A stretch of 32,000 bases of DNA from Sedimentisphaera cyanobacteriorum (GCF_001997385.1 NZ_CP019633.1:2070001-2102000); one strand, 5' to 3'. Positions 595 to 17,048 are shown, counted from the stretch's first letter. Notes: generated by a model from the sequence alone, not told the origin. A program made the numbers and translations.

Positions 595-726
595 ATGAAA
601 CCAAAATGTGAAAATTCTAATTGTAACTGTGATGGAAAATGCAAAGTCTGTCAATGCCGTGAAACCGTAGCAATTGCCGTGCAGTCTCAAGTCAAAGAGA
701 AAAAGGCCGAAAGGACTGCAAAATGA
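595..726 (+). CDS. 43-aa cysteine-rich micropeptide (MKPKCENSNCNCDGKCKVCQCRETVAIAVQSQVKEKKAERTAK), below the ORF-track length cutoff
   Basis: Hand translation gives ATG at 595 and TGA at 724-726. That stop overlaps the ATG (723-725) of the radical SAM gene as ATGA. Six Cys lie in residues 5-21. A weak GGAA sits about 7 nt upstream of the ATG. Confidence 0.5.
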   Translation: MKPKCENSNCNCDGKCKVCQCRETVAIAVQSQVKEKKAERTAK

Positions 727-2714
727 ATGCAAAAACTGAAACAATCAATTTTTCCAATAGTAATGGACAAAAGCAGTATCAAACGGAGAAACCCTGTGAA
801 TTTCCTTTTGACTCACGTTTTCGCAGCCACATGGATACTTACGGCTGGAGCCGGGTATCACCAACCGGCAATGAAAAAGAATACCGGCTGAATATCATTA
901 AAAACGGCAGCAGTGAAATGAACAGGCGAACAGCTTACATTCATATTCCGTTTTGCGGTACACTTTGTACGTTCTGTAATTTCATGAGAAAGCCCGGCAC
1001 TGCTGCGATGGCCGCTGATTATGCCCAACTGGTTATACAGGAATTACAATGGTATAAGGGTTCTGGTTACATTTCTCAAGGCGGATTTGAGGCACTGTAT
1101 CTGGGGGGCGGGACACCGTCACTATTACCTGCTGAAGCTATGTCGGAACTGCTGAATACTGCTCGCAAAACACTTGGACTTGACGAAACGGCAGAGATCA
1201 CCATTGAGTCAACGGTACATGACCTTACTCAGGAAAAACTTGATGCAATGGTCCAGTCTGGCGTAACACGCATCAGCCTTGGCGTGCAGACATTTAATTC
1301 TGATATGCGGCGGCAGCTGGGAAGGCTCTCTGATAAGGAAACGATTTACAGCACCATCGAAATGGCGAGAAAGGCCGGAATCAAAACCATTTCTTCTGAC
1401 ATTCTTTATCGCCTGCCGGGTCAAAATCTTCAGGAATTCCAGGCTGATCTTGAATGCGCGGTCGAGTTAAACCTGGATGGTGTATCTTTGTATCCTTTGA
1501 TTGCCATGGGCGGAACACCTTTAGAAAAACGGCTAAAAGAGGGCAAAATTCCTCCATTACCAGATATTTCTATCGAGCTGGAACAATGTAAAGCAACAAA
1601 GAAGTTCCTGATCGATGCTGGCTACCAGCAGGACACGTGCACTCATTTTGTCAAGCCAACAGATCGAAATCTCTATGCGAATATCCGTCTGGATGATGGA
1701 GACTGTCTGCCCATCGGCAGCAGTGCCGGCGGCTATCTTGGCCCGCTTGTTCTTATGAACGCCATGGATAAGCAGATGTATCAGATGCAAATCTCTGGAG
1801 GCAAGTCCGGATATATGGCTTCTGTTCTGCTGCCGTCGAAATCCAGAATGCTAAGGTCGGTTACCGGGCAGCTTCAGCGTGGTTTTCTAAATGTTGAAAC
1901 TGTTTGGCAGGATGGTACGTTGGAACCCAAGACTCTTTTGCAAGATAAGATTGATCAGTACCTTGAAAATGGATTGCTTGAAAAAGATGGACAGCAGTAC
2001 CGATTAACCGATGATGGCTGGTGCTGGTGTTATAACATTGCAGCCGATTTTGCGGATATGGGCAAAAATGAAAGTGCCGCAAGCAGTTCTGTAATGTCAT
2101 TTGCGCAAACAAGCGGCAAAAAGCCGCATCCTCATGCATTAAAATACGGCAGCAAAAAACAAGGTCACTCCATGCGGGGCTTTTCATTAAAAGACATTTC
2201 TGTTCTGGGTGTTATGACTGCGCTGGTGGTTGTTGTCCAATTTATAGCTGCGATGGTTTTACATATGACTGGGATTGCTCTGATCCCCGGCCTGATGCAG
2301 TTTGTAATGGCGTTTGCCTCCTGTATCATTTTGTTTGTCGCCATAAAAAAAGTCCCCAAAGCCGGGGCACTTAGCATTATGACAGCGGTATATTCTCTGG
2401 TAACGATGCTGTTGTCCGGCAGTATTCTGATGGGGTTTGGGCTGGTGATCGGCGGTGTTTTAGGCGACCTGACCGCCAAATGGCTTGGCGGGATTGGGAA
2501 AACGGTTCCGTTGATCATTGCTTTAGTTATCTATCGAACTTCTCAGACAACATTCAGCAAGCTGTATGCATTCATCACTGAGATGACACAGGTGCAATTT
2601 GTATGGTATCTGGTCGTGCTTTCAATCATCGCTTCTGCAATAGGTGCGATTGTCGGAGGATTAGCCGGTATAAAACTAACGGCAAAGATCTCAAAAGCGG
2701 GAGTGATGGCATGA
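723..2714 (+). CDS. HemN/ChuW/HemW-like radical SAM enzyme fused to a C-terminal ECF-transporter S-component-like polytopic membrane domain
   Basis: Carries the CxxxCxxC motif YIHIPFCGTLCTFCNF, the HemN-family blocks LYLGGGTPSLL and RISLGVQTFN. After a Ser/Lys/His-rich linker (about aa 445-490) there are about 170 aa of consecutive hydrophobic helices (VLGVMTALVVVVQFIAAMVL... to the end). An ECF T gene follows with an ATGA overlap. Confidence 0.8.
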   Translation: MNAKTETINFSNSNGQKQYQTEKPCEFPFDSRFRSHMDTYGWSRVSPTGNEKEYRLNIIKNGSSEMNRRTAYIHIPFCGTLCTFCNFMRKPGTAAMAADYAQLVIQELQWYKGSGYISQGGFEALYLGGGTPSLLPAEAMSELLNTARKTLGLDETAEITIESTVHDLTQEKLDAMVQSGVTRISLGVQTFNSDMRRQLGRLSDKETIYSTIEMARKAGIKTISSDILYRLPGQNLQEFQADLECAVELNLDGVSLYPLIAMGGTPLEKRLKEGKIPPLPDISIELEQCKATKKFLIDAGYQQDTCTHFVKPTDRNLYANIRLDDGDCLPIGSSAGGYLGPLVLMNAMDKQMYQMQISGGKSGYMASVLLPSKSRMLRSVTGQLQRGFLNVETVWQDGTLEPKTLLQDKIDQYLENGLLEKDGQQYRLTDDGWCWCYNIAADFADMGKNESAASSSVMSFAQTSGKKPHPHALKYGSKKQGHSMRGFSLKDISVLGVMTALVVVVQFIAAMVLHMTGIALIPGLMQFVMAFASCIILFVAIKKVPKAGALSIMTAVYSLVTMLLSGSILMGFGLVIGGVLGDLTAKWLGGIGKTVPLIIALVIYRTSQTTFSKLYAFITEMTQVQFVWYLVVLSIIASAIGAIVGGLAGIKLTAKISKAGVMA

Positions 2715-3469
2715 TACGCTCATTCATCCAGCGACTGGGACAGCGAAATCCGGATTGTATTTTCGAACAGCTTGATCCAAGATGTAAACTGATCATCCTT
2801 TTTGCTGTTACCATAATGATCATTATAGGCAACAGCGTTTTCTCTGCAGGCCTGTTCATAGCTGCCGGTTTTCTCGCCTTTTATTCGAAGCTGATGAAAT
2901 TGTTTCTCTTTACAACTGTATTGGCGGCCATTTTTTGGGTTATTTTTATGGTGATATTCCAATATGCCCTGGACAAGCCGATGGAAGACCCCAAAGCCAT
3001 GTTTGTTGGAATGGTTTTCAGAGGAACTGCACTGGCAACCACCGGATTATGGTTTGCTGTGACCACTAAATTGCGTGATATGACTATCGCACTTGAAGCC
3101 TGGAGAATCCCCAATATTATTATCCTGCCGCTGACAATTGCGGTTCGGTTTATACCGACACTGCTCAATGAATCCCTGGTCATTCACGATTCCATGCGGC
3201 TTCGACGCTTGGCTCATCGAAAGCGTGACCTGATTACCCAGCCTCATTTGATCGGCCAGAGCTATATATCACTGGTGACAATCCGAAGCCTGAAAATGGC
3301 AGATGAACTGGCCGCCGTTGCTGAGACACGGGGGCTTGCTCGCCCGAACCAAAGACAGTTTCTAAAGCCTGCAAAATTCAGGAAAAACGACTATTGCGCC
3401 CTGAGCATCCTGCTGGCTCTGGCGGCTGTTTTAACCGCAGCGTCATTATATGTAAGGGCCGCTGCATAA
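2711..3469 (+). CDS. ecfT: ECF transporter transmembrane (T) component, EcfT/CbiQ family
   Basis: ATG 2711 overlaps the upstream TGA as ATGA. The protein is polytopic and has a CbiQ-like region (IILPLTIAVRFIPTLLNESLVIHDSMRLR). It lies between an S-like domain and, beyond the island, a tandem ABC ATPase. Confidence 0.75.
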   Translation: MIRSFIQRLGQRNPDCIFEQLDPRCKLIILFAVTIMIIIGNSVFSAGLFIAAGFLAFYSKLMKLFLFTTVLAAIFWVIFMVIFQYALDKPMEDPKAMFVGMVFRGTALATTGLWFAVTTKLRDMTIALEAWRIPNIIILPLTIAVRFIPTLLNESLVIHDSMRLRRLAHRKRDLITQPHLIGQSYISLVTIRSLKMADELAAVAETRGLARPNQRQFLKPAKFRKNDYCALSILLALAAVLTAASLYVRAAA

Positions 3470-3576
3470 ATAATTCGCTCTTTTAAAAGTAAATAATTCC
3501 GGCCTTTCGCACAGGCCATAAGGATGGCTGACCCTGTTTGCGGACGGAATCGAAATCAAAAGTAAAAGCCTTTAGA

Positions 3577-3765
3577 AACGTTTTCGGATGCTCCCGGACG
3601 CTTTTCGCGGCTTCCCGAACGGCATTCGGAGTGTCCCGGACGGCGTTCCAGACTCCCCAAACGCTTTCCGGGGCGTTCCAGAATGCTTTTGGAATGTTCC
3701 AAAACGCTTTCGGGGCGTTCCGGACGCAATCCGGGGCGTTTTGCAACGAATCAAAATGCCGTTAA
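3577..3765. repeat. Nine head-to-tail 21-bp repeats, no indels (consensus about AACGCTTTCGGGGCGTTCCGG)
   Basis: Hand-parsed unit starts are 3577, 3598, 3619, 3640, 3661, 3682, 3703, 3724 and 3745. The best units contain the inverted pair AACGC..GCGTT. Unit junctions carry CC(G/C)G(G/A)ACG. Confidence 0.85.
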
Positions 3766-3828
3766 AACCCTTGACGCCGGACAATATCCGGCTATAATAC
3801 GACTTGTTTTGCCCGGCGGCGTAGCCGG
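3719..3828 (+). repeat. Promoter/junction module, copy 1 (last two 21-bp units + promoter + 5' hairpin)
   Basis: Near-identical to 6275-6387: tccggacgcaatccggggcgttt ... aacgaatcaaaatgccgt ... atatccggctataatacgacttgttttgcccggcggcg.agccgg. Confidence 0.85.
3771..3798 (+). promoter_or_regulatory. Sigma70-type promoter TTGACG-16 nt-TATAAT with an imperfect palindrome CCGGAcaatATCCGG in the spacer
   Basis: The hexamers were read directly from the sequence. Downstream is the hairpin GCCCGGC-ggcgta-GCCGGGgGC, then the Zn-ribbon gene at 3932. Confidence 0.55.
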
Positions 3829-3931
3829 GGGCGATTAATAAGCAAATGCAGGTAAAAATGTATCGACCGCCTTTTAATTATCCGAATAAGAGGAGTCTGT
3901 CCAATCATTGTTGGGCCTTACCGGGGGAAAT

Positions 3932-4462
3932 ATGCCTCTGAGGAAATGTAAGGATTGTGGCAACTCCGTTAGTAGCACTGCGAAAATCTGCCCTCACTGC
4001 GGCAGGCCGATGCAAAGCAGGGATATTATTTCATCTCTCGCTAGATTTTTTGTCATCGGCTTCGTCATAATCCCCATCATCATTTCAATCTTCATGTCGG
4101 TATACCACTCCGGCACAAGCACTGACTCCAACGGCAACCACGCAACTTCATCTGCTAGGGTTCCAAAGACTCCAAAGATCGACAAATCTGAGAAGATGCA
4201 GGCCGATCGCCTTAATCTCATTGAGAGACTTCAAAGGGAGGGCATCTTCGGCGACATCATCCCAAGATCTTCCGGCGCGACAATAGTTGTCAAACCAGCG
4301 TTTTACACGCTCGATTTCAAAGATAAGCAGTCGTTTGTTTCTGTTGTGTATGCGTACTACTTCGATGGTTTGACCCCGTATACGCCAATCCTTTTACGAG
4401 ACTCGCGCACCAACAATAACATCGGTTCCTTTACAGTAGAACTCGGTTTAGATATCAAATGA
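3932..4462 (+). CDS. Zinc-ribbon protein with one TM helix and a C-terminal domain of about 85 aa of unknown function
   Basis: ATG 3932 is preceded by GGGGGAAAT. It has the motif CKDCGNSVSSTAKICPHCG and the TM segment FFVIGFVIIPIIISIFMSVY. A low-complexity S/T/K linker follows, then LNLIERLQREGIF...VELGLDIK. Confidence 0.6.
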   Translation: MPLRKCKDCGNSVSSTAKICPHCGRPMQSRDIISSLARFFVIGFVIIPIIISIFMSVYHSGTSTDSNGNHATSSARVPKTPKIDKSEKMQADRLNLIERLQREGIFGDIIPRSSGATIVVKPAFYTLDFKDKQSFVSVVYAYYFDGLTPYTPILLRDSRTNNNIGSFTVELGLDIK

Positions 4463-4520
4463 CGCAGCCCGAAGGTGTTATGAAGAAACCATATAACTAT
4501 TGTTATGCCATCAAGGAAAC

Positions 4521-5372
4521 ATGATGCGGAATACTAAGCTGTTAAAGAAAGCCTTATTGTTAGTCGTTGCTACTGGTTTGATTGGACTTATTATCTGTGC
4601 CGTCTACATCCACAAAGATACGTCGCTTGATAGTCTTTCAGAAATCCCTGCACGAGCAACATCAAGTGGACTGTCCGGACAACTAAAAATCGGCGTTATT
4701 GGGGACAGCTGGGTTGCACGTCAGAAACTGGACTACGCAATTGAATCAACGGTCGCCGAATCTGGATTCGAGACAGTAGTTCTTAGCTCGGGTCATCCAG
4801 GGGCAAAGAGTCGGCAAATATATCGAAACCTCTTCTTAGAAAGTGGAAACAAAAACTCAAGCAATGCTCTGTTCATGGATGATGATTTGGATTACTTGGT
4901 AGTTGTTGCTGGGGTAAACGATTCTGCTGGGCACATTGGAAAGGCATTTTACTCTCATCATATGCTTCTCATCGTTCAGGCAGCATTAGCTCGTGGAATA
5001 AAACCTGTAATTGTCGAAGTTCCAGAATATGGAATAGAAGATACTCCATCAGTTGGTTTGCTGTCGTGGGTGAAACGGTCAATTTACCTTTGGCTGTTTG
5101 ATGGTGGCAAGGTGGATGTGATAAGAGAATATAGAAAGGCACTTCAAGAAGAACTTCAAGCATCAGGTATCGATGACAAAGTTTTTCTTGTTAGATTCTC
5201 GTCAATCGCTAATGACTACAATGCCAGCAAAGATCTCTACGCAAATTCATCACATCTAAATCACGATGGATACTCGAAATTGGGTAAACTGATAGCCGAT
5301 AGCATAACTGAATGGCATAACAAAGCCATGCACTCGGACGGGAATTCCGCTGCGCTTCATTTCCGCCGGTGA
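4521..5372 (+). CDS. N-terminally membrane-anchored SGNH/GDSL-family hydrolase
   Basis: ATGATG at 4521 follows AAGGAA. The TM segment is ALLLVVATGLIGLIICAVYI. SGNH blocks are GVIGDSWV (I), SSGHPGA (II), VVAGVNDS (III) and SSHLNHDGY (V, with Asn where the DxxH Asp is usual). Confidence 0.7.
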   Translation: MMRNTKLLKKALLLVVATGLIGLIICAVYIHKDTSLDSLSEIPARATSSGLSGQLKIGVIGDSWVARQKLDYAIESTVAESGFETVVLSSGHPGAKSRQIYRNLFLESGNKNSSNALFMDDDLDYLVVVAGVNDSAGHIGKAFYSHHMLLIVQAALARGIKPVIVEVPEYGIEDTPSVGLLSWVKRSIYLWLFDGGKVDVIREYRKALQEELQASGIDDKVFLVRFSSIANDYNASKDLYANSSHLNHDGYSKLGKLIADSITEWHNKAMHSDGNSAALHFRR

Positions 5373-5400
5373 TGGCAAGCGTTAGCATTCGGAGGAAAGT

Positions 5401-6015
5401 ATGGCTTGGTTCGTCATAGCGATAATTGTAGCCGCAGTCATTTATGTATGGGTAAAGCGAAAAATAAGCCGGCCAGACCTCACAATCCTGCCAGAACGCT
5501 TCGTGGTTTTTGATCTTGAAACTACCGGCTTAAAGCCAGATACTCACGAAATCATTGAAATCGGAGCAATCCGAGTGAATCGAGACTCTGGTAAGCACGA
5601 TACATTTCAAGCGTTGGTCCGGCCCACTAAGAAGATTCCAAAAAAGATCACTGGAATTACCGGCATTACCCAAGATATGGTAGAGAAAGACGGTGATTTT
5701 TTAGAGACAGCTCTCCCCCAATTCATTGAATTCGTAAGTGATCTACCACTCGTGTCCTTCAATGCTGAATTTGATATGGCTTTTCTGAATGCCGCAATTA
5801 GTAAAACTCAGGTTGGTGCACTTGCCAATAACCGTGTTTCGTGTGCCCTGAAAATGGCTCGTCGCGCATGGCCCGGCAGGAAGAGCTACCGTCTCAGTGA
5901 TCTTGCAAAAGATGGGAGGTTGTCTTCAGATGATACCCATCGCGCCCTTGGTGACTGCAAACGTGCGATGGTCGTTTATACGGCAGCCGCTGCCAAACTG
6001 CGAAGTGCAACATAG
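5401..6015 (+). CDS. N-terminally membrane-anchored DEDDh 3'-5' exonuclease (DnaQ/epsilon-like domain)
   Basis: The TM segment MAWFVIAIIVAAVIYVWV is followed by KRKISR. Exonuclease motifs are ExoI VVFDLETTGL, ExoII SFNAEFDMAFL and ExoIII THRALGDC. GGAGGAAAGT precedes the ATG. Confidence 0.8.
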   Translation: MAWFVIAIIVAAVIYVWVKRKISRPDLTILPERFVVFDLETTGLKPDTHEIIEIGAIRVNRDSGKHDTFQALVRPTKKIPKKITGITGITQDMVEKDGDFLETALPQFIEFVSDLPLVSFNAEFDMAFLNAAISKTQVGALANNRVSCALKMARRAWPGRKSYRLSDLAKDGRLSSDDTHRALGDCKRAMVVYTAAAAKLRSAT

Positions 6016-6055
6016 ACACAAATTAAAGGTGTCCGGTGCTTTTTTCCTACCTAAT

Positions 6056-6280
6056 GCAGGTCAATTTTTATGCCGCCTTTACTGTAAACCGCTATTGCGG
6101 CGTGTTCTCTACGGCAAAGTCCAAAAACCGATAGCCCTCTTTTAATACACGCTGGCCGGCTACGAGCTGGATGGGATAATTAAAAAGCGGCCCATCTGTT
6201 ACCACCGTGTTCAACTGGCCGGAAGAATTGAAAATAAGAAAAGGTGTCTGGGAAGCAGTCCCGATTTATCGGGCTCCGGA
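6056..6280. repeat. Repeat A, copy 1 (about 225 bp)
   Basis: Aligns by eye along its whole length with 11246-11470, with scattered substitutions and a 1-nt indel. It contains the structured segment GCCGC-cttta-CGGT-aa-ACCG-ctatt-GCGGC and the hairpin CCCGAtttaTCGGG. Confidence 0.85.
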
Positions 6281-6387
6281 CGCAATCCGGGGCGTTTGGG
6301 AACGAATCAAAATGCCGTCAAAAAAACCCTTGCAGCGGGATAATATCCGGCTATAATACGACTTGTTTTGCCCGGCGGCGCAGCCGG
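6275..6387 (+). repeat. Promoter/junction module, copy 2
   Basis: Near-identical to 3719-3828 (see that feature). It is directly fused to the end of Repeat A copy 1. Confidence 0.85.
6330..6357 (+). promoter_or_regulatory. Sigma70-type promoter TTGCAG-16 nt-TATAAT (paralogue of 3771-3798)
   Basis: The hexamers were read directly from the sequence. The spacer is CGGGAtaatATCCGG. It lies upstream of the RM-like trio, which starts at about 6414. Confidence 0.5.
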
Positions 6388-6413
6388 ACAGCCGATATGG
6401 GAAATGGCAGATT

Positions 6414-7076
6414 ATGCCGATGGAAGAACAAGTCAAATCAAAGCAGAGGGTAGCCGATCATGGCGAGGTTTTGACCGGTAAGCGGGAGGTCAATGCCATG
6501 CTGGATCTGGTCAAGCAGGAGACCGAGCGAATCGATTCCCGCTTTCTGGAACCGGCCTGCGGGGCGGGCAACTTTCTGGCGGAGATTCTCGAACGGAAGC
6601 TGCGCGTCGTGGAGAAGCGCTATGCCAAGAGCCAACTGGAATACGAGCGCAACGCGGTGCTCGCCGTCTCCAGTATCTACGGCATCGATATTCTTGAAGA
6701 TAACATCGAGCAGTGCCGACAGCGGCTGTTCGGCATCTTCGACCGGAACTACCTGCGGCTCTTCTCAAGCAAGACGAACGACCAATGCCGCGAAACGGTC
6801 CGCTTCATCCTCGAACGCAACATCGTTCACGGCGACGCGCTGACCCTCAAGACGGTCGGCGAGCAACCGGGCTACATCGTCTTTTCCGAATGGTCGCCGG
6901 TCAACGGCAGTTTCCTCAAACGCCGCGACTTCACCTTTCACGGTCTGCTGGAACATGAGCATATACGGGGACTGCCGCTGTTCTCCGACCTGGGCGAGGA
7001 TGTGTTCATCCCCACGCCGGAGAAGGAATACCCGCTGGCGCATTTCCTGGAGGTGGCCGATGCTGACAAGCAATAA
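6414..7076 (+). CDS. Methyltransferase-fold protein with SAM-binding motif I but no recognisable NPPY/DPPY motif IV (degenerate paralogue of the next gene)
   Basis: [17 protein letters not shown]...[12 protein letters not shown] parallels [17 protein letters not shown]...[12 protein letters not shown] in the downstream methyltransferase. IYGIDI and IVHGDALT are present. Where xxGNPPY is expected the sequence reads [11 protein letters not shown]. The start could be 6414 or 6420. Confidence 0.65.
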
Positions 7077-8628
7077 CTACAACCCCGACGTGCTGACCTG
7101 CATCGCCAACCTGTCGAGCGACGAGGTCTTCACGCCGCCGGGGCTGGTCAACCGGATGCTCGACCTGCTGCCGCCGGAACTCTGGAGCGACCCGCAGGCG
7201 ACCTTTCTCGATCCGGGCTGCAAGTCGGGCGTGTTCCTGCGCGAGATCGCCAAGCGGCTCGACGCCGGGCTGGAGCGGCGCATCCCCAACCGGCAGGAGC
7301 GGATGAACCACATCTTCAAGCACCAGCTCTACGGCCTGGCCATCACGGAACTGACGGCGCTGCTCTCGCGCCGCTCGGTCTATTGCTCCAAGACGGCCAA
7401 CGGCAAGTATTCCGTCTGCGAGACCTTCGACGCCCCCGAGGGCAACATCCGCTTCGGGCGCGTGGAGCATACCTGGGTGAACGGCCGCTGCGTCTTCTGC
7501 GGGGCGAACGAGGAAAACTATAAGCGCGGAGAAGAACTCGAAACCCACGCCTACGAGTTCATCCACACCGAAAAACCGGAGGAGATATTCAATATGAAAT
7601 TCGACGTCATCATCGGCAACCCGCCCTACCAGTTGAGCGACGGGGGCGCTGCCGCCAGCGCCATGCCTCTATACCATCGGTTCATCCAGCAAGCGAAGAA
7701 ACTTAACCCTCGTTATTTGACGATGATCGTTCCAAGCCGCTGGTTTTCAGGCGGGAAGGGGCTGGACGAATTTAGGGCAGAGATGCTTCAAGATAAGCGA
7801 ATGCAACACCTTGTCGACTACCCAGTATCAGCGGAATGCTTCCCCGGAGTTTCTATCAAAGGGGGAGTGTGTTACTTCCTCTGGGTAAGGGACTATACAG
7901 GTCCTTGTTCGGTAACTACAATACGCGGAGGGGTGAGCACATGTTCTATCCGACCATTGCTCGAATCGGGCATTTCTGATTTTATTCGATACAACGAGGC
8001 TATTCCGATTCTAAACAAGGTGCGCAGACATTCAGAGGCTACCTTCGACAAAGAAGTTAGCGCAAGAAAGCCTTTTGGACTACCTACTGATTTCCGACAG
8101 TTCAAGAAGCACCGATTCGAAGCGGCAGTCAAGATATACGCCAACAAGCAATTCGGCTACATTGAGCGAGTAAATATCCCCGAGCGGACTGAGTGGATCA
8201 ACAGATGGAAGATCTATCTGACCCGTGCATATGGTGCTGGGGAAGATTTCCCGCACCAAATTCTTAATAAGCCGTTCTTGGGCGAACCTGGTAGTTGTTG
8301 CACTGAGACATACTTGGTGATTGGGCCATATGCTTCGAAGAAAACTGCACAGGCTGTATTGTCGTACATTAGAACTCGCTTCTTTCGCTTTCTTGTTCTC
8401 CTGAAGAAGAATACACAAGACTCGCCTCGTGGAGTATTCACGTTGGTTCCAATACAAGACTTCTCAAGGCATTGGACCGACGAAAAGCTCTACAAGAAGT
8501 ACGGCCTGACCGCAGACGAAATCGCCTTCATTGAATCGATGGTCCGCCCGATGGAGGCGAACGGGGAGGACCTGTCTGCGTGCGACGCACAGGCAGATGC
8601 GTCAGACGGGGAGGCGGACGATGAGTGA
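7060..8628 (+). CDS. Eco57I-like (gamma-class) N6-adenine DNA methyltransferase
   Basis: ATG 7060 follows GGAGGTGG and overlaps the upstream gene by 17 nt. Motif I is [12 protein letters not shown] and motif IV is VIIGNPPYQ. There is a Cys cluster (C..C...CVFC) between them. The C-terminal block [24 protein letters not shown] is typical of this family as I recall it. Confidence 0.85.
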
Positions 8629-11167
8629 CGGCTTTTTCCCGCCGCGCCCGAAATCGCGGCCCACGATCTACGCCTACGAGGACACCAACCCGCAATACGC
8701 CGGGCTGCTCAAGGTGGGCTATACGACTGTGGACGCGCAGAGCCGCGTGGCGCAGCAGTATCCGACGCTGCGGCCCGGCAAGCCGCCCTACCGAATCGTG
8801 CTCGAAGAACCGGCCATGCGCAACGACGGGACCACCTTCACCGATCATCACGTCCACGGCATGTTGCGGATCAACGGCGTGAAGAACGAGGGCGGCGAGT
8901 GGTTCCGCTGCACGGTGGAGCAGGTCAAGGCGGCGATCATCGCCGTGCGCACCGGCCAACTGAACGAGGAGAACCGGTCGCTGGATTTCGCCCTGCGCCC
9001 CGAGCAGGAAGCGGCGGTCGAGAAGACGGCGGCCTACTTCGCCGCCTGGCGCAGGGACAAGGCCAACGGCGACAAGCCGCCGCATTTCCTGTGGAACGCC
9101 AAGATGCGCTTCGGCAAGACCTTCGCCGCCTATCAACTGGCGAAGCGGATGAACTGGCGCAAGGTGCTGGTGCTGACCTTCAAGCCGGCGGTGCAGAGCG
9201 CGTGGGAAGAGGACCTGAAGCAGCACGTCGCTTTCGCGGGTTGGCAGTTCATCAAGCCCGGCGGCCTGACCTATGAGGAGGCAGACAAGGGGAAGCCCTT
9301 CGTCTGCTTCGGCTCGTTTCAGGACTACCTGGGCAAGAACAAGAGCACGGGCGGCATCAAGACCAAGAACGAATGGGTTCACGCGACGAACTGGGATTGC
9401 GTGATCTTCGACGAATACCACTACGGCGCCTGGCGCGAGAACGCCAAGGAACTGTTCGAGGCAGAGGACAAGAAGGAGATGGCCTTCGCCGAGGGCGAGG
9501 GGCTGGAAGACTTTGACGAAGAGATCATGCCGATCACGACGGAGCACTACCTGTATCTGTCGGGCACGCCGTTCCGCGCCATCGCCTCGGGCGAGTTCAT
9601 CGAGGAGCAAATCTTCAACTGGACCTATTCGGACGAGCAGCGCGCCAAGCGGGACTGGGAGGGCGAGAACAACCCCTACGCCTGCCTGCCGCGCATGGTG
9701 CTCATGACCTATCAGCTGCCCGACGCGATCCGGGAAATCGCCATGCAGGGCGAGTTCGACGAGTTCGACCTGAACGTGTTCTTTTCCGCCGAGGGGGTGG
9801 GCGAACACGCGAAGTTCAAGTATGAGGACGAAGTGCAGAAGTGGCTCGACCTGATCCGCGGCGCGTTTCAGGCGGCGACGGTGGACAACCTGAAGCTGGG
9901 GACGAAGAAGCCGCCGATGCCGTATTCCGATGCGCGGCTGCTGAATCTCCTATCGCATACCTTTTGGTTCCTGCCGAGCGTGGCGGCGTGTCATGCCATG
10001 CGCAACCTGCTGGCGAAGAAGCAGAATCGCTTCTATCAGGACTATAAGATCCTCGTGGCGGCGGGGAGCGCCGCCGGAATCGGCGTCGCCGCGCTGCCGC
10101 CGGTGCTGGACGCCATGGAAGACCCGCTGGAATCGAAGACCATCACCTTGTCATGCGGGAAGTTGACGACCGGCGTGACGGTGCGGCCCTGGACGGGCAT
10201 CTTCATGCTGCGCAACGCTTCCACGCCGGAGACCTACTTTCAGGCGGCCTTTCGGGTGCAATCGCCCTGGACGGTGGCGAACCCCGACGGCGACGCGCCG
10301 AACCGCGAGCAGATCATCAAGGAGGAGTGTTACGTCTTCGACTTTGCGCCGGACCGTGCCTTGCGGCAGATCGCCGATTACAGTTGCCGCTTGAATGTGG
10401 ACGAGGCCAACCCCGAGAAGAAGGTCGAGGAGTTCATCAGCTTCCTCCCGGTGCTGGCCTATGACGGCAGTTCGATGAAGCAGATCGACGCGGCGGGGAT
10501 TCTCGACATGGCGATGAGCGGGACGACGGCGACGCTGCTGGCGCGGCGCTGGGAAAGCGCGCTGCTGGTGAATGTGGACAACGACACGCTGAAGCGGTTG
10601 ATGGCGGACGAAGCGGCGATGAAGGCGCTGATGAGCATCGAGGGATTCCGCAACCTCAATCAGGACATCGAGACGATCATCAACAAGTCGGAAGCCGTGA
10701 AGAAGGCGCGTAAGGAAAAGAACGACGAGGACATGACGAAGGAAGAGAAGAAGGAACTGACCGAGGAAGAGAAGGAATTCAAGAGCAAGCGCAAGCAGAT
10801 ACAGGAGAAGCTCATCAAGTTCGCCACGCGCGTTCCGATCTTCATGTATCTGACCGACTATCGGGAGCGCTGCCTGAAGGACGTGATCACCCAACTGGAG
10901 CCGGGCTTGTTCAAGAAGGTGACGGGCCTGAGTGTGAAGGATTTCGAGTTGCTGGTGAGCCTCGGCGTCTTCAACAGCGCCCTGATGAACGACGCCGTCT
11001 ACAAGTTCAAGCGTTACGAAGACGCCAGTCTGAGTTATACCGGCATCAACCGGCACGAGGGAGAAGACATCGGCCTCTACGATACAGTCCTCACTCCCAA
11101 GGATGCACTGAAGGTTTTCGAGAACGTACAGGCAGGTGCCGGATATGAATTTCAAAGAATGGGCTAA
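8621..11167 (+). CDS. T5orf172/GIY-YIG-like N-terminal domain fused to an SF2 (ResIII/SNF2-like) helicase with a Lys/Glu-rich coiled-coil region
   Basis: ATG 8621 overlaps the methyltransferase stop (ATGAGTGA). The N-terminal motifs are TIYAYED...LLKVGYTT...R...GGEWFRC. Helicase motifs are [19 protein letters not shown] and [12 protein letters not shown]. The late block is [13 protein letters not shown]. Confidence 0.85.
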
Positions 11168-11245
11168 CAAGGCGCTGCACCGGACGACGCTGCGCGCCGC
11201 TGATGCTGGGCGTTGGATAGAAAGGGAACATGGATAACCTTCAAG

Positions 11246-11470
11246 GCAGGTCAATTTCTATGCCGCCTTTACGGTAAACCGCTATTGCGGCGCGTTCTTG
11301 ACGGCAAAGTCCAAAAACCAATAGCCATCTTTTAATACACGTTTGCCCGCTGCGAGTTGGATGGGATAATTAAAAAGCGGCCCCCCGTTACCACCGTGTT
11401 CAACTGGCCGGAAGAATTGAAAATAAGAAAAGGTGTCTGGGAAGCAGTCCCGATTTATCGGGCTCCCGGA
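11246..11470. repeat. Repeat A, copy 2
   Basis: See 6056-6280. Here the - strand reading frame is intact (...FFRPVEHGGNGGPLFNYPIQLAAGKRVLKDGYWFLDFAVKNAPQ*). Copy 1 carries a frameshift but conservative substitutions, which suggests a gene 3'-end relic. Confidence 0.85.
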
Positions 11471-11533
11471 CAGCCGTCGAATCCAGCGGTTGGATTTGAA
11501 AATAATTGTGCAGCAGACTTTTGAGTAATTGTA

Positions 11534-13039
11534 ATGCTGAAAATACAAGACTTAACATTTACATATACCCGGCAGGAGAAACCTGCTTTAAGCAATATCA
11601 ATCTGGATATTTCACCGGGCAAGCTGGTGCTTTTGACCGGGCCTTCCGGCAGCGGAAAATCTACGCTTGTGCATTGCATCAACGGCCTGGCTCCGCAGCA
11701 CTACGGAGGGAAGCTTGATGGAGAAATATGGATTGCCGGACGAGAAACCGCCGGAAAAACACTTTGGCAAATCAGTGAGTTGACAGGCACCGTATTTCAA
11801 AACCCCAATACCCAGTTTTTCCAGCTTACGGTCGAAGATGAAATCGCCTTTGGCCTTGAGCATTCAGGTCTTGACCGGCAGGAAATAAAAAAACGAATAG
11901 ATAAAGCCATAGAAGATATTGAGATCGAGTCTCTTAGAAATCGAGATATTTTCACCCTGTCCTCCGGCGAAAAACAAAAGGTGGCCTTGGCATCTATCAT
12001 TGCGATGGATCAGCCACTGCTTCTTCTGGATGAGCCGACGGCAAATCTCGATATCCCCTCAATTCATGAATTGAAAAAACTGCTGGCCAAATTAAAGAAT
12101 CAAGGCAGGACAATTATCGTTTCCGAACATCGACTGTGGTATTTAAGAGGCCTTGCCGATCAGGTGATCGTAATTAAAGACGGACAACTGATTTATGACG
12201 GAAAACCGGAAATACTGAATTCATCTCAATTCCGCAATGAAATTGGTTTACGCATATGGGCTAAGCCTCCGAAAATTACTGATTCCGAACATAATAATCT
12301 CAGACAGCGGACCGTACTGGATGTAAGCCGTCTTTCAGGGGGAGCAGGAAATAAAAAAGACATTCTCAACAACGTGAACTTTTCATTCAACGCAGGCGAA
12401 TGCATTGCCATTATGGGGCATAATGGAGTTGGTAAGACAATGTTTTCTCGCTTACTGACCGGCTTGCAAAAAGAGAGCCATGGAATCATTAAAATCAACG
12501 GCACTGCTTTAAAGCACAAAAGCCGAATCGGACAGATCGGATGTGTTACCCAGCAGGCTGAACAGCAGTTATTCTCTGATACGGTTCTTGGTGAATTACT
12601 TCTTAATCCAAAAGACAATGCGACGGAGGCCGATAAAGCAAAAGATATTTTAAGGCAATATGGTCTGATTGCCTTGAAAGACCGTCACCCGCAAACCCTC
12701 TCCGGCGGCGAAAAACAGCGTTTGGCAATTGCCGCCTCAATTGCAATGAATAATGAAATAATAATCCTCGACGAACCCACCAGCGGCATGGATATGAAGA
12801 GGATGAAAATGCTCGCTCAGGAAGTTAAGAATCTGTGCAGTCAGGGCATACTTGTCATTATCATTACACATGATATCGAATTGGTCTCGCTATGCTGCGA
12901 CAAGATAGCCTGGATGGAAAATGGAACCGTTGCCAAAACGTTAGAACGCGATCAATATAATGAATTATTTATTAAACTATTGAAATTTGACAGAACAGAA
13001 AGGCATAATGATGAAATGCATGGTTGTTTACTCAAGTAA
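11534..13039 (+). CDS. ecfA: ECF-type ABC transporter ATPase, two fused nucleotide-binding domains (EcfA1-EcfA2-like)
   Basis: Domain 1 has GPSGSGKST / LSSGEKQKV / LLLLDEPT. Domain 2 has GHNGVGKT / LSGGEKQRL / IIILDEPTSG. Confidence 0.85.
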   Translation: MLKIQDLTFTYTRQEKPALSNINLDISPGKLVLLTGPSGSGKSTLVHCINGLAPQHYGGKLDGEIWIAGRETAGKTLWQISELTGTVFQNPNTQFFQLTVEDEIAFGLEHSGLDRQEIKKRIDKAIEDIEIESLRNRDIFTLSSGEKQKVALASIIAMDQPLLLLDEPTANLDIPSIHELKKLLAKLKNQGRTIIVSEHRLWYLRGLADQVIVIKDGQLIYDGKPEILNSSQFRNEIGLRIWAKPPKITDSEHNNLRQRTVLDVSRLSGGAGNKKDILNNVNFSFNAGECIAIMGHNGVGKTMFSRLLTGLQKESHGIIKINGTALKHKSRIGQIGCVTQQAEQQLFSDTVLGELLLNPKDNATEADKAKDILRQYGLIALKDRHPQTLSGGEKQRLAIAASIAMNNEIIILDEPTSGMDMKRMKMLAQEVKNLCSQGILVIIITHDIELVSLCCDKIAWMENGTVAKTLERDQYNELFIKLLKFDRTERHNDEMHGCLLK

Positions 13040-13541
13040 AACCGGAAATACAAAAATAATTGCTGAGGCGATCCATAAGGCATTGCCCCAGGACACGGAG
13101 CTTTATCCTGTGGAAAACGCCCCCTCTTCTGATCATTACGATTTCATTGCAGTTGGCGGTTGGGTTGATAAAGGAATGCCCGATGAGGCAATACAAAACT
13201 ATATGCAGAAAATCCATAAAAAAAGTATTGGAATATTTTTGACACTGGGTGCCTATCCTGATTCTCAACATGCTGCGGAATCTTTGCAGAAAGCATGCGA
13301 ATTATTAAATGACAATACAATTCTCGGATCATTTATTTGTCAGGGCAAGGTTGACCCTAAGCTCATAGAGATGATGGCTAAAATGACAAAAGACAAGCCG
13401 GAACACCCCCATGCCATGAATGATGAAAGAAAGGCCAGGTTAGCCGAAGCTGCCAAACACCCCAACGATCAGGACTGCCGAAATGCCGCAGAGACTTTTA
13501 AAAAAATGATCGAAGAATTAAAGGGGCAATCCAATGCGTAA
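13008..13541 (+). CDS. Flavodoxin-family protein
   Basis: Has VVYSSKTGNTK, an FMN phosphate-binding loop, near the N terminus. The start (ATGATG at 13008) follows AAAGG and overlaps the end of the ATPase gene. Confidence 0.7.
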   Translation: MMKCMVVYSSKTGNTKIIAEAIHKALPQDTELYPVENAPSSDHYDFIAVGGWVDKGMPDEAIQNYMQKIHKKSIGIFLTLGAYPDSQHAAESLQKACELLNDNTILGSFICQGKVDPKLIEMMAKMTKDKPEHPHAMNDERKARLAEAAKHPNDQDCRNAAETFKKMIEELKGQSNA

Positions 13542-13956
13542 AATGACCGAAACGGAAATTAACGAACTCGTAAAGAATTCAAATTGGGCAACCATTTGCA
13601 CGGTTACTCCTGATGGGCTTCCTTACGCAATCGAAGCCACCTATTTTATCGATGGCAAATACATTGGCTTTATGATCAACCCGAGAGGTAGGACAATGCA
13701 AAACCTAAAGCATAATCCGAACCTAATCCTAAAAATAACTCAGGCCAGTGGCGATCTTTCCAAATGGGCAGGAGTGAGCCTCTTTGGAACAGGCCAAAAT
13801 ATAACTGATTCTGATGCAATTCGAAAAGGCTGGGAGCTACTCGGAGAGGTTATGAATACTGATTACACCACAGTTACAGAAAAATGCAATAATACGGAAC
13901 AACGTTCGCCTTATCTCAAATGCACGATCTCTCAGATTACAGGGAGGAGTAGCTGA
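13534..13956 (+). CDS. Pyridoxamine-5'-phosphate-oxidase-like (FMN-binding split-barrel) protein
   Basis: Overlaps the flavodoxin stop by 8 nt. The pattern N.WATICTVTPDGLPYAIEATYF..G.. is typical of the PNPOx/Nim/HugZ-like fold family. Assigned by pattern memory only. Confidence 0.55.
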   Translation: MRKMTETEINELVKNSNWATICTVTPDGLPYAIEATYFIDGKYIGFMINPRGRTMQNLKHNPNLILKITQASGDLSKWAGVSLFGTGQNITDSDAIRKGWELLGEVMNTDYTTVTEKCNNTEQRSPYLKCTISQITGRSS

Positions 13957-14591
13957 GTTAACTACCCGCGTTCAGAAAAAACAATAAAGTGACAAAAAAT
14001 TATTTTTGAAGCATAATTGGCATTTTCTGTCCGTTTTTTATAGGACACCACAAGCCATTAAGATTTGCAGACACTACAACTGTACGGGTTCAGTGTGATT
14101 TGGACAAATCCGTTTCACAGTTAAGACACTTTTTATGCCTTTGGCGGGGCTGTCTTATCAGGTTTTTTTAAGGCATGGCAATGCTCTCAATTGCCCAGTT
14201 TGTAAAATGGGATGGCAGGTGTATGACTGCCACCCCAACGAAAATTCGTCGCCTTGAACTGGCTATCCCTAGCAGATTGCAACCAAGGCCTCATGCCACC
14301 TATATAATTTGCTCCTTGATGATGGTGTCGTCCTCAGATTTTGATTTTGGCGGCACCAAATTACAGTTTTTTCACGAAAATGAGGGGGACGGAGAGGTAT
14401 AGTTATAACTTAAGCTTTAACAGGAGGTTAGGTAACATATGTATAAACGGCGGAGCAAAATTGTCCCACCTGGCGGGCGGTTGAAAGTTGTACCCCTGTA
14501 ACCGAAATACCTGTAATAATAGACTGCAAGCAGAGATTCAAAGGACATTTGCAGTAGGTTATTATGGGAGAAAACAGGAGTGTACACAGAT

Positions 14592-16091
14592 ATGGATCAA
14601 TGGATCGAGTTAAGGCGTCAAATTCGTAATGGAGAGGTTTCCCTCCGTCAGTTGGAGCGGGAGACAGGTATTCACCGGCAGACCCTGCGTAAAATCCGGG
14701 ACAACAGTGAGCCGCCGGGCTACCGGCGTACCAAGCCGGCTGGAAAGACCAAGATTGGTCCGTATCTGGGTCGCATCAAGGAGATCATTGACGCTGACAA
14801 GCAGATGCCTAAAAAGCAGCGTCACACAGCCAAGAAGATTTTAGAGACGCTGGAGTCTGAAGGATTTACCGGCAGTTACACGATCGTCAAAGATGCCGTC
14901 CGCCAGATTAAAAAGACTTCCCGGGAAGTGTTCATGCCACTGAGCCAGCGACCGGGCGAGGCGCAGGTGGATTTCGGCCATGCCCTGACCAGCTTCGACG
15001 GCACCCTGAAAAAAATCGTATTCTTTGTCATGACCATGGTTCATTCGGATGCGATGTTCGTAATGGCGTTTCCCCGTGAATGTACCGAAGCTTTTCTGGA
15101 GGCCCATGTACGGGCGTTTAAGTTCTTCGGCTGTGTTCCCAGGCGGATCATTTATGATAATACCCGTGTAGCTATTACAAAGATACTGAAACATCATAAA
15201 CGCAAATATACCAGTGAGTTTAAGCGACTCATCAGTCATTACCTGTTCGAGCCTCACTTCTGTAACGTTCGAAGACCCAACGAGAAGGGTATTGTCGAAG
15301 GCAGTGTCAAGTATTCCAGGCTCAACTTCATGGTCCCCGTGCCGCAGGTTACCGATTACGATGACCTCAATCGGCTCTTGTATAACTGCTGCCAATCCGA
15401 CCTGAAGCGTATCCTCCGCGGCAAACGTTCTCTCAGTAAAGAACAGTTGCTGGCCGAAGACCGTGTCGCAGCCATCGCGTTGCCGGATGACACGTTTGAC
15501 TACCGCAAATCGGCATCGACATTTGCCAGCAGTGAATCACTTGTCCGTTATGACACCAACGATTATTCAGTCCCGGTAAGTTCAGCTCATCATCAGACGA
15601 CGATCAAGGCGTCAGTCAGCTTTATCGAGGTCTATCAACAGGACCGGCTCATCGCCAGGCACCGTCGCTGCTGGGACCGAGAACGGCAGATATTCGATCC
15701 GATGCACTATTTAGAGCTTTTGGAACGCAAGCCGGGTTCCCTGGATCATGCTCGTCCTCTGGAGGATTGGTCGCTGCCGAGATGTTTTAACACGTATCGC
15801 CGATGTCTTGAGGCGAATCGTGAAAACGGCACCAGGGAATATATCCAGATATTGCTCTTGCTGAACAAATATTCAATCCGACAAATATCGAAAGCCATCT
15901 GCAAGGCCCTCAATCATCGGATCTACTGTTATTGTGCGGTGCAGCAGTTCCTGCTGACGGCTGAAGATTATGCCTTTACGACCTTCAGCCTTGCCGGGCG
16001 GGACCATCTTCGTCACATTGTGGTTCGTCAGACCTCAGTTGCCGATTATCGTTCACTGACACAGGGAGGCTGTCATGTCAAAAGAGCGTAA
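14592..16091 (+). CDS. istA: IS21-family transposase IstA
   Basis: N-terminal HTH (LRQLERETGIHRQTLRKI) followed by a DDE/rve core. ATG 14592 lies 11 nt after AGGAG; the ORF-track start at 14580 is a GTG inside the RBS. The gene overlaps istB in the manner typical of IS21. Confidence 0.85.
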   Translation: MDQWIELRRQIRNGEVSLRQLERETGIHRQTLRKIRDNSEPPGYRRTKPAGKTKIGPYLGRIKEIIDADKQMPKKQRHTAKKILETLESEGFTGSYTIVKDAVRQIKKTSREVFMPLSQRPGEAQVDFGHALTSFDGTLKKIVFFVMTMVHSDAMFVMAFPRECTEAFLEAHVRAFKFFGCVPRRIIYDNTRVAITKILKHHKRKYTSEFKRLISHYLFEPHFCNVRRPNEKGIVEGSVKYSRLNFMVPVPQVTDYDDLNRLLYNCCQSDLKRILRGKRSLSKEQLLAEDRVAAIALPDDTFDYRKSASTFASSESLVRYDTNDYSVPVSSAHHQTTIKASVSFIEVYQQDRLIARHRRCWDRERQIFDPMHYLELLERKPGSLDHARPLEDWSLPRCFNTYRRCLEANRENGTREYIQILLLLNKYSIRQISKAICKALNHRIYCYCAVQQFLLTAEDYAFTTFSLAGRDHLRHIVVRQTSVADYRSLTQGGCHVKRA

Positions 16092-16860
16092 ATCGACCGT
16101 GCTGCTGCAACATCATCTCAAGCAGTTGAAACTTCCGACCATGCTTAAAGAATATCCGCTGCTGGCCAAATCCTGCAGCCGGGAAAAATGTGATTACCCG
16201 ACTTACCTGCTGCGGCTGTGCGAAAAAGAGGTTGCCGACCGGCAGCGGCGTGCGATGGACCGGCGAATCAAGGCAGCGAAGTTCCCGTTGCTCAAAACCA
16301 TTGACAGCTTTGACTTTGCCTCACAGAAGTCCGTCAACGAACCGCTCGTCCGGGAGTTATTACGGTGCGAGTTCATTGATCAATATGAAAATGTATTACT
16401 GATCGGCAACAGCGGAACGGGCAAGACCCATCTGGCCACTGCACTGGGGTTCGCTGCCTGTTGTCAGGGCTGCAAAGTCCGATTCTTCGGATGCACGGCA
16501 TTGGTGACACAGTTACTGGAAGCTCGGGAAGATCGGCAGTTGCAGCGAATGCTGACACAGCTCCAAAAACAGGACCTGCTGATCCTGGATGAACTGGGCT
16601 ATGTGCCATTCAGCAAAGCCGGTTCTGAGTTGCTCTTTGAGGTCGTCAGCCGGGCTTACGAACGGCAGAGCCTGATCGTGACGACCAACCTTCCGTTCGA
16701 GAACTGGACTGAAGTGTGCGGCTCCGAGAGGCTCACCGGGGCGATGTTGGATCGGCTCACGCACCGGGTCCATATCATCGAGGCCAACGGTAGTAGTTAT
16801 CGGCTTGATCAGAGCCGTAAACGCCTGGCAAAACAGCAGAAAAGAGCTGCCGAGAATTGA
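16075..16860 (+). CDS. istB: IS21-family helper ATPase IstB
   Basis: Walker A GNSGTGKTHLA and Walker B LLILDELGY. The size and position immediately after istA fit IstB. Confidence 0.9.
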   Translation: MSKERKSTVLLQHHLKQLKLPTMLKEYPLLAKSCSREKCDYPTYLLRLCEKEVADRQRRAMDRRIKAAKFPLLKTIDSFDFASQKSVNEPLVRELLRCEFIDQYENVLLIGNSGTGKTHLATALGFAACCQGCKVRFFGCTALVTQLLEAREDRQLQRMLTQLQKQDLLILDELGYVPFSKAGSELLFEVVSRAYERQSLIVTTNLPFENWTEVCGSERLTGAMLDRLTHRVHIIEANGSSYRLDQSRKRLAKQQKRAAEN

Positions 16861-17048
16861 AGATTGACAGCCGGGGCGGTCCCGGCTATACAGAAATCAG
16901 GTGGTACAAAATTGCTCCGCCAGGTGGGACAATTTTACTCCGCCGTTTATAAGGCTGACTTCCTTAGATCTAAATAGCAGAACTTTATAGCATGATAAGC
17001 CAAATAACTGTTAAAATATAACACTATTTTGCCTTTTTATTTTTTATA

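Follow-up and report, generated by a model that had tools for sequence, protein, structure and literature searches.

Restriction-modification (RM) genes can reportedly insert with long target duplication, a phenomenon said to have been described by Nobusato in 2000 (Gene 259:99), and to our knowledge the mechanism of such insertion is still unknown. Prophages and other elements can integrate at the 3' terminus of a protein gene and bring a replacement for it, e14 and phage 21 at icd in E. coli being examples, and the cassettes of integrons are normally promoterless. RM units that carry no mobility gene and lie between long direct repeats of their target were recognised as a class by Kobayashi's group (Furuta, Abe & Kobayashi 2010, NAR 38:2428, PMC2853133); since the published repeats reach 417/423 and 384/412 bp (PMC2853133), an imperfect repeat of 229 bp is within their range. 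Such a repeat, here called Repeat A, brackets a three-gene RM-like unit in Sedimentisphaera cyanobacteriorum, in a stretch of 32 kb (GCF_001997385.1 NZ_CP019633.1:2070001-2102000) that was read as a whole and is called the window below.

The criteria of Furuta 2010 (R and M homologues, an insert <20 kb with no mobility genes, and a flanking direct repeat >30 bp) were applied to this locus, where we found R and M homologues in an insert <20 kb without mobility genes, between repeats of 229 bp; by our comparison the layout would match the "insertion with long target duplication" class. A sequence-only reading of the same DNA had seen the repeats as junctions of an excisable cassette at a hotspot. 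Its central observation was confirmed, with one detail reversed, and the gene relic, the RM unit and the deletion-like junction that it described all stood, but the cassette platform and the hotspot did not. On balance we think it probable, though far from certain, that the repeats are the footprint of a mobile RM unit's entry and not the working parts of a dedicated cassette system. The locus is a new example of a known pattern for mobile RM genes, not a new cassette system.

Extent and divergence of Repeat A

The two copies of Repeat A are direct, 229 bp long and spaced 5190 bp apart. They align along their full length (6053-6281 vs 11243-11471), as had been claimed, and a gapped local alignment gave identity at 213/228 aligned positions, with mismatches at the other 15 and two single-nucleotide indels, through which the left copy has one base more at 6194 and the right copy one C more at 11465. 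The repeat search returned the copies in two pieces, 6053-6193 / 11243-11383 at 91% and 6183-6277 / 11372-11466 at 93%, which are the longest direct repeats in the window. The similarity is far above chance: the next-longest, leaving aside a promoter module described below, are 31-36 nt at 72-75%.

The mismatches are clustered, with 15 within 6055-6197 and 0 within 6198-6281 (Fisher p = 0.0013), and the latter block agrees with the right copy at each aligned base, save the one extra C in that copy. The clustering could reflect a gene-conversion or crossover tract, or constraint on a 61-bp stretch at the inner end of the repeat as part of a regulatory module. When a metagenome contig with homology to Repeat A (L004, introduced below) was used as outgroup, the derived state was that of the right copy at about nine of the differences and that of the left at seven.

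Repeat A occurs twice within the 32-kb window, and neither it nor the promoter module was found in the other fetched loci. An exact-pattern scan with a 24-mer from Repeat A gave no match in viral, metagenome or genome contigs, and a degenerate 28-mer gave none in metagenome contigs, a search that also missed L004, the collection probably being without very short contigs. Searching 6021-6414 by blastn returned no match in plasmid or phage collections. The repeat search detected no inverted-repeat pair involving Repeat A within the window, in folding the inner 70 nt (6221-6290) do not surpass shuffled sequences, and Rfam has no family at Repeat A or the promoter module.

One feature is particular to the right copy, where copy-specific substitutions at 11343-11370 create a promoter-like TTGCCC-16-GATAAT, preceded by TG, that faces the cut-off ATPase gene downstream; its -35 hexamer is absent from the left copy and from L004.

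A Dph6-like gene relic inside the repeat

Each copy of Repeat A is composed of a 3' untranslated region (UTR), a 42-codon relic tail on the minus strand, and an identical 61-bp non-coding stretch. The 60-aa relic peptide had no match in a word-indexed protein search, and a full phmmer scan identified as its relatives P0121 (110 aa, 91% identity) and the more distant P0124 and P0125, all of which match PF01902 Diphthami_syn_2 (1.9e-7 to 3.8e-12). For P0121 and P0124 the match lies towards the C terminus of the family profile (positions 160-215 of its 219), and the left relic is 76% identical to P0121 residues 65-109; the 45-aa relic alone matches the PF01902 model weakly (E = 0.19). The phmmer search with the relic peptide thus upheld the proposal that the repeat derives from a gene 3' end and assigned that gene to the Dph6-like family.

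At the DNA level the key comparison is with L004, a 966-bp Joint Genome Institute (JGI) metagenome contig that encodes P0121 and has 88% identity to window 6220-6021 and 11409-11242. Positions 381-578 of the contig match 6220-6021 at 88%, and the match to the right copy stops at 11242. Of the 229 bp of Repeat A, 168 correspond to the 3' end and UTR of this protein-coding gene and 61 (6221-6281) lie outside it. The homology ends at 6220 in the left copy and at 11409 in the right, a truncation point common to both relics, and from this shared endpoint together with the identical 61-bp extension, both copies descend from one sequence that was already truncated. Homology of the left copy to L004 continues for 32 bp past Repeat A, through 6021-6052, which places the left copy in the relic gene's native 3' context; the outer boundary of the right copy (11242/11243) is a new joint with RM-unit DNA. 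The single relic on L004 aligns at 88% with both copies of Repeat A, but on a 966-bp contig in another context.

The detail that was reversed concerns the reading frame. The right copy had been described as intact and the left as frameshifted, but it is the left copy that holds one frame over 45 P0121 residues (6235-6101), keeping the frame of P0121, and the right copy that aligns over 31 residues only (11383-11291), with a derived 1-nt deletion near 11384-11386. The replacements between the copies had also been called conservative. Over the 34 shared codons there are 10 substitutions at codon positions 4/1/5, with 6 replacement codons and 3 synonymous changes, a pattern that looks neutral-like and carries no sign of purifying selection. 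No body of the PF01902 gene was found in the window, and neither copy completes an intact target gene.

Elsewhere in the island, downstream of the first promoter module, 24 nt at 3862-3885 match L004 406-429 at 22/24 positions in the orientation opposite to the Repeat A copies (E = 6e-4 in a small search); this match may be due to chance.

Junctions, promoter modules and palindromes

The promoter module constitutes a second repeat family, 3719-3828 vs 6275-6387 at 92-94%, and the left copy of Repeat A does run straight into it. The left junction reads GGGCT-CCGGAC (6276-6281), then the module, CCGGAC (6384-6389), AGCCG (6390-6394) and the RM leader ATATGG. The right junction reads GGGCTC-CCGGAC-AGCCG (11466-11476) followed by TCGAATCC, the sequence after AGCCG being unrelated to that on the left. 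As had been seen, the right junction equals the left minus the module, the difference being 108 bp between two CCGGAC hexamers. A 6-bp repeat at such a 108-bp indel is what microhomology-mediated deletion would leave. The additional 5-nt match, AGCCG, at both junctions has a chance expectation of about 1 in 1000.

The palindrome CCGGA-N5-TCCGG has 5 matches vs 0.55 expected. Sites are found at 3777-3791, 6276-6290 and 6336-6350, and in the array at 3583-3720, for which TRF reported a tandem period of 21 at 3659-3721. In module 1 one palindrome occupies the spacer that separates the -35 and -10 hexamers, and module 2 has it, with one mismatch, at the corresponding spot; this placement suggests that the palindromes are a candidate operator set for some regulator rather than a crossover site.

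Both occurrences of the promoter module are in this island, and Repeat A flanks the RM unit alone. The promoter core had no match in viral contigs by exact-pattern scan, and the idea of reusable junction and promoter modules found no instance outside the island in the collections and fetched loci searched. Folded as RNA, four segments did no better than their shuffles: the 61-bp non-coding stretch, the leader of the module, the tail of the island, and a T-rich tract after the exonuclease gene. The stretch 6021-6045 was considered as a terminator and dropped, its fold being no better than shuffles.

The restriction-modification unit and its relatives

The identification of the DNA between the repeats as RM-like proved right. 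It contains an intact unit of three co-oriented genes, encoding an orf4 protein, an N6-adenine methyltransferase (MTase) and a helicase-nuclease that matches the helicase part of the Type IIG restriction endonuclease-methyltransferase (REase-MTase) model. The insert between the repeats measures 4848-4961 bp (<20 kb) and holds only these three genes; no mobility gene or recombinase was found in it.

Relatives of the helicase protein were surveyed with one genome per species, and were found in at least 550 genome stretches from many phyla; the identities and loci given here are from the best 80 of these matching stretches. The best 80 have 77-93% aa identity and include Thermodesulfobacteriota, Planctomycetota, Acidobacteriota, Verrucomicrobiota, Chloroflexota, Actinomycetota, Gammaproteobacteria and archaeal bins. 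At the DNA level the other copies are homologous from 6416 onwards, usually to 11170 at the most and in one locus (L008) to 11217, and the homology never takes in the promoter module, Repeat A or the 61-bp stretch. For the MTase, identity is no more than 51-68% in full-length alignments, and DNA homology usually lapses over about 7773-8440. A homologue of orf4 is present in 62/80 loci, near full length in 58, and the possibility that orf4 is a truncated relic of an earlier MTase was dropped, as it is the conserved first gene in these 62/80 loci.

The guanine-plus-cytosine (GC) content of the unit is 59-65%, apart from the low-GC variable MTase stretch at about 7773-8440, vs about 43% in the flanks. 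Given this composition and the occurrence of its closest copies in other phyla, the RM unit is foreign DNA that was horizontally acquired. No flanking gene family is common to more than three of the compared RM loci, and the unit evidently spreads without a mobility gene of its own.

Direct repeats were also found around the same RM unit in three other loci. In L033, perfect 57-bp repeats (7633-7689 / 12574-12630, spacing 4941) tightly bracket it, beginning in the 3' end of a tRNA-Glu gene and taking in its terminator hairpin. Perfect 25-bp repeats surround it in L039 (7546-7570 / 12511-12535, spacing 4965), and 51-73-bp repeats in L013 (6020-6092 / 13375-13447). The sequences just inside the repeats are unrelated across the window, L033, L039 and L013, and the insert ends share nothing conserved, which is in keeping with variable, end-independent insertion rather than with a transposon. 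The RM unit is thus bracketed by duplications of 25, 57, 51-73 and 229 bp in four unrelated genomes.

A 30-codon open reading frame (ORF) at 11145-11237 overlaps the end of the helicase gene, within which it starts, and its stop is 5 bp short of the right copy of Repeat A. It had no convincing homologue downstream of the other copies of the RM unit.

An 8-kb island in a transporter operon

The RM unit and both copies of Repeat A belong to a larger island (Table 1). Window positions 604-3455 and 11525-13943 have 81-85% nt identity to L001 and L003, in which the two adjoin without a break, and cbiQ abuts or overlaps the ATPase gene in 6/6 relatives of the operon (L001/L002, L003, L085, L086/L087 and L088), where the gene order is a radical-SAM/Trep_Strep fusion, CbiQ, a double ABC ATPase, flavodoxin and then, in most, PNPOx. 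Because the flanks are contiguous and cbiQ is next to the ATPase gene in all six relatives, 3456-11526 is a lineage-specific insertion that splits an energy-coupling factor (ECF) transporter operon. The claim of a cassette hotspot gained no evidence from this comparison, cbiQ abutting the ATPase gene in every one of these relatives, and the result largely deflates that idea. Downstream of the island, the genes for the ATPase, flavodoxin and PNPOx would now depend on read-through or on island-supplied promoters.

In order, the island contains the palindrome array and module 1, three genes of host-like GC, the relic with its 61 bp, module 2, the RM unit, the second relic copy, and the tail. No integrase, transposase or recombinase domain was found in any ORF of 3456-11526, and the island has no significant terminal inverted repeats (score 17 vs 15.3 +/- 2.3 for shuffles). 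The SGNH hydrolase gene (4499-5384) has 85-88% nt identity to L089-L094, where it is in two other neighbourhoods and the homology stops at the gene ends, so the island holds relocated lineage-native genes as well. GTAA is present at both island ends (3456 and 11526) and may be a 4-bp target duplication or microhomology, and island sequence has taken the place of the last few codons of cbiQ. When the window's ATPase, helicase and exonuclease were looked up by exact match, no near-identical strain was on record.

The sole mobility genes in the window are those of an IS21-family element 3 kb from the island. It occupies 14442-16951, just downstream of the PNPOx gene, encodes IstA-like (503 aa) and IstB (261 aa) proteins, and has its own 35-nt terminal inverted repeats at 97%. 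A cobalamin riboswitch (RF00174, 17098-17301, 71.8 bits), with a gene cluster for cobalamin salvage and transport downstream of it, is the only Rfam match above the gathering score in the window, in which no tRNA genes were found.

Table 1. Features of the island and of the repeat-flanked RM unit, in window coordinates
Feature	Position	Strand	Basis or remark
Mosaic island, 8.07 kb	3456..11526	.	Exactly between cbiQ stop and ATG of ECF ATPase gene
Degenerate array of 21-22-bp units on palindrome CCGGA-N5-TCCGG	3583..3720	+	Upstream of module 1
Promoter module copy 1, TTGACG-16-TATAAT, CCGGA-N5-TCCGG palindrome in spacer	3719..3828	+	Repeat and pattern search
Three host-GC genes: zinc-ribbon membrane protein, SGNH hydrolase, DEDDh exonuclease	3908..6015	+	Pfam
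Native 3' flank of relic gene	6021..6052	-	Beside left copy only; L004 homology
Repeat A, left copy	6053..6281	.	Repeat search and local alignment
Relic of PF01902 (Dph6-like PP-loop ATPase) gene, last 42 codons and stop	6092..6220	-	Ancestral frame kept
Non-coding stretch, 61 bp, ends CCGGAC (6276-6281)	6221..6281	.	Joined to relic at identical nucleotide in both copies
Indel of 108 bp carrying promoter module copy 2 (TTGCAG-16-TATAAT)	6282..6389	+	Left junction only; CCGGAC at 6276-6281 and 6384-6389
AGCCG, end of duplicated target	6390..6394	.	Recurs after right copy, 11472-11476
Non-duplicated insert, 4848 bp, RM-like unit inside	6395..11242	+	GC 59-65% except variable MTase part
orf4, 220-aa MTase-like, N-terminal S-adenosylmethionine (SAM)-binding motif, conserved first gene	6414..7076	+	PF20473 partial match
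Eco57I-type N6-adenine DNA methyltransferase	7060..8628	+	PF07669 8e-38; PADLOC MTase_II / REase_MTase_IIG
T5orf172 (GIY-YIG-like) and ResIII helicase protein, putative restriction component	8621..11167	+	Domain and PADLOC matches
Repeat A, right copy	11243..11471	.	Repeat search and local alignment; relic inside at 11282-11409 (-)
CCGGACAGCCG, right junction without promoter module	11466..11476	.	Sequence
Island tail, 50 bp	11477..11526	.	Before host ATPase gene (ATG 11534)

Origin of the repeats

The sequence of events that we favour begins with an older mosaic island that would already have split the ECF operon, and whose right end would have carried the dead Dph6-like tail, the 61 bp, CCGGAC, possibly the module, and AGCCG. 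The 4.85-kb three-gene RM unit (6395-11242) would then have arrived, and a target of about 235-340 bp, running from 6053 through AGCCG (6394), would have ended up on both sides of it. Entry may have been by insertion with long target duplication. It may also have been by one homologous crossover between the resident copy and a circle consisting of relic', 61 bp, module and RM unit, with relic' a diverged copy, a route that would also account for the diverged right copy and the identical inner 84 bp. The presence of the module on the left only might be due to a 108-bp microhomology deletion from the right copy, or to insertion at the hexamer of the left copy.

In their present state the repeats would act as passive 229-bp homology. 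By established knowledge and by Furuta et al. 2010 (PMC2853133), direct repeats of this length are a bona fide substrate for RecA-type recombination, which could delete or amplify the RM unit, so that excision or exchange by ordinary homologous recombination is possible. To this extent the recombination envisaged in the sequence-only reading stands; for its site-specific variant no evidence was found, the 8-kb island having no integrase or transposase. From what is known of RM systems, post-segregational killing would work against loss of the unit, provided that the system is active.

Several observations weigh against entry with target duplication. The comparison by which a long target duplication is defined calls for a genome that has Repeat A just once here, as the site would be before the RM step; none was found, and all six operon relatives are without the whole island. 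Over 145 bp the copies have diverged by 7-10%, each with derived changes of its own, the repeats of L033 and L039 being perfect; this would mean that the event is old, or else that the right copy has its origin in a diverged lineage. Simple duplication and drift do not predict the clustering of mismatches (15 in 145 bp vs 0 in 84 bp). About 50 of about 60 RM loci with flanks carry no flanking repeat, and the count of two copies of Repeat A covers the 32-kb window, not the rest of the source genome.

On another view, the relic and its 61 bp would have been duplicated beforehand, by segmental duplication or during assembly of the island from related pieces, and the RM unit would later have landed between the copies or replaced what lay there. 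We regard this as distinctly less probable, though some observations speak for it: the copies are 7-10% diverged on both lineages while the RM unit is compositionally unameliorated and intact, the island is a mosaic of gene-sized pieces with differing affinities, and the promoter module is itself duplicated within it. "Chance insertion between repeated sequences" is, moreover, a class of Furuta et al. 2010 (PMC2853133) that fits such a history. It would, however, require two independent events at the same few hundred bases, and the RM insert exactly fills the interval, with the 11242/11243 joint to RM-unit DNA at one end and AGCCG followed directly by the RM leader at the other; repeat-flanked insertions of the same RM family elsewhere also speak for duplication upon entry. 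A different history, which the lack of an integrase and of a gene body on either copy makes quite improbable, would have a site-specific integrase insert an element at the 3' end of a Dph6-like gene that was still alive, the element bringing a replacement for that end, with the gene body and integrase later lost. The native 3' context of the left copy, the diverged right copy abutting element DNA and the identity block at the inner end are as this would predict, but both copies are cut at the same nucleotide and continue into the same 61 bp, which implies duplication after the gene's death, and the substitution pattern is neutral-like.

That Repeat A and the CCGGA-containing module are recombination sites of a site-specific platform for capture, excision and exchange, with a reusable promoter, seems improbable. 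At the head of each gene group stands the promoter module (3719-3828 and 6275-6387), CCGGAC is at both edges of the module indel, an array of CCGGA-N5-TCCGG lies upstream of module 1, and the 84 bp beside the module are identical in both copies save one extra C. On the other hand, the 8-kb island has no recombinase, with the window's mobility genes confined to the IS21-family element, the site is empty in all six relatives, and the module and repeat are in none of the other fetched loci or searched collections; a palindrome between -35 and -10 fits an operator better, and the 6-bp repeat at the 108-bp indel fits microhomology-mediated deletion. In a very doubtful variant, the 61 bp and the module with its palindromes would be a portable promoter-bearing junction, used by a recombinase or DNA-binding protein encoded elsewhere to capture gene groups. 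Were this true, the 84-bp identity block would be the crossover site of a promoter-donating gene-capture platform unlike integrons. Finally, it is highly unlikely that Repeat A is a dispersed short repeat, a miniature inverted-repeat transposable element (MITE) or repetitive extragenic palindrome (REP), flanking the RM unit by coincidence. Inspection confined to 32 kb of a contig of about 2.95 Mb leaves some room for this alternative, which had been named as one that would overturn the cassette idea, but it was not upheld. The repeat is gene-derived, with 168/229 bp being a gene 3' end and UTR that has an 88% identical homologue in another organism; no inverted-repeat pair was reported, the fold of the inner 70 nt (6221-6290) is no better than that of shuffles, the window holds two copies, and the exact 24- and 28-mers are absent from three large collections.

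Comparison with known systems

Integron cassettes resemble this island in that co-oriented gene groups stand in tandem at one locus. Unlike in integrons, the recurrent element here is a promoter 5' of each group and not an attC 3' of it, and there is no intI. What recalls e14 and phage 21 is that the inserted DNA lies between direct duplicates of a gene 3' end which have diverged by a few per cent; here, however, the target gene is dead on both sides and no integrase is present. Campbell-type (single-crossover) integration of a circle likewise gives two direct copies, one with its outer side in resident context and the other abutting incoming DNA, and it also predicts a stretch of identity around the crossover, but the required donor with relic and 61 bp is absent from all collections searched and no circular form was seen.

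The closest counterpart is insertion with long target duplication. The locus differs from the published examples in that its repeats are more diverged (93%), and unevenly so, with one copy lacking the 108-bp module, in that the comparison is made without an empty-site genome for the RM step, and in that the target is non-native, being a dead gene tail in an older island and not the end of a host gene. It agrees with them in having R and M homologues in a short (<20 kb) insert without a mobility gene, in direct repeats that are far longer than transposon target duplications and span a gene end, and in insert ends that are not conserved among independent insertions of this RM unit. The added value is modest and consists in a widespread RM unit that shows target duplications of variable length in four unrelated genomes; being a three-gene unit without a mobility gene, it could serve as a comparative model for long target duplication.

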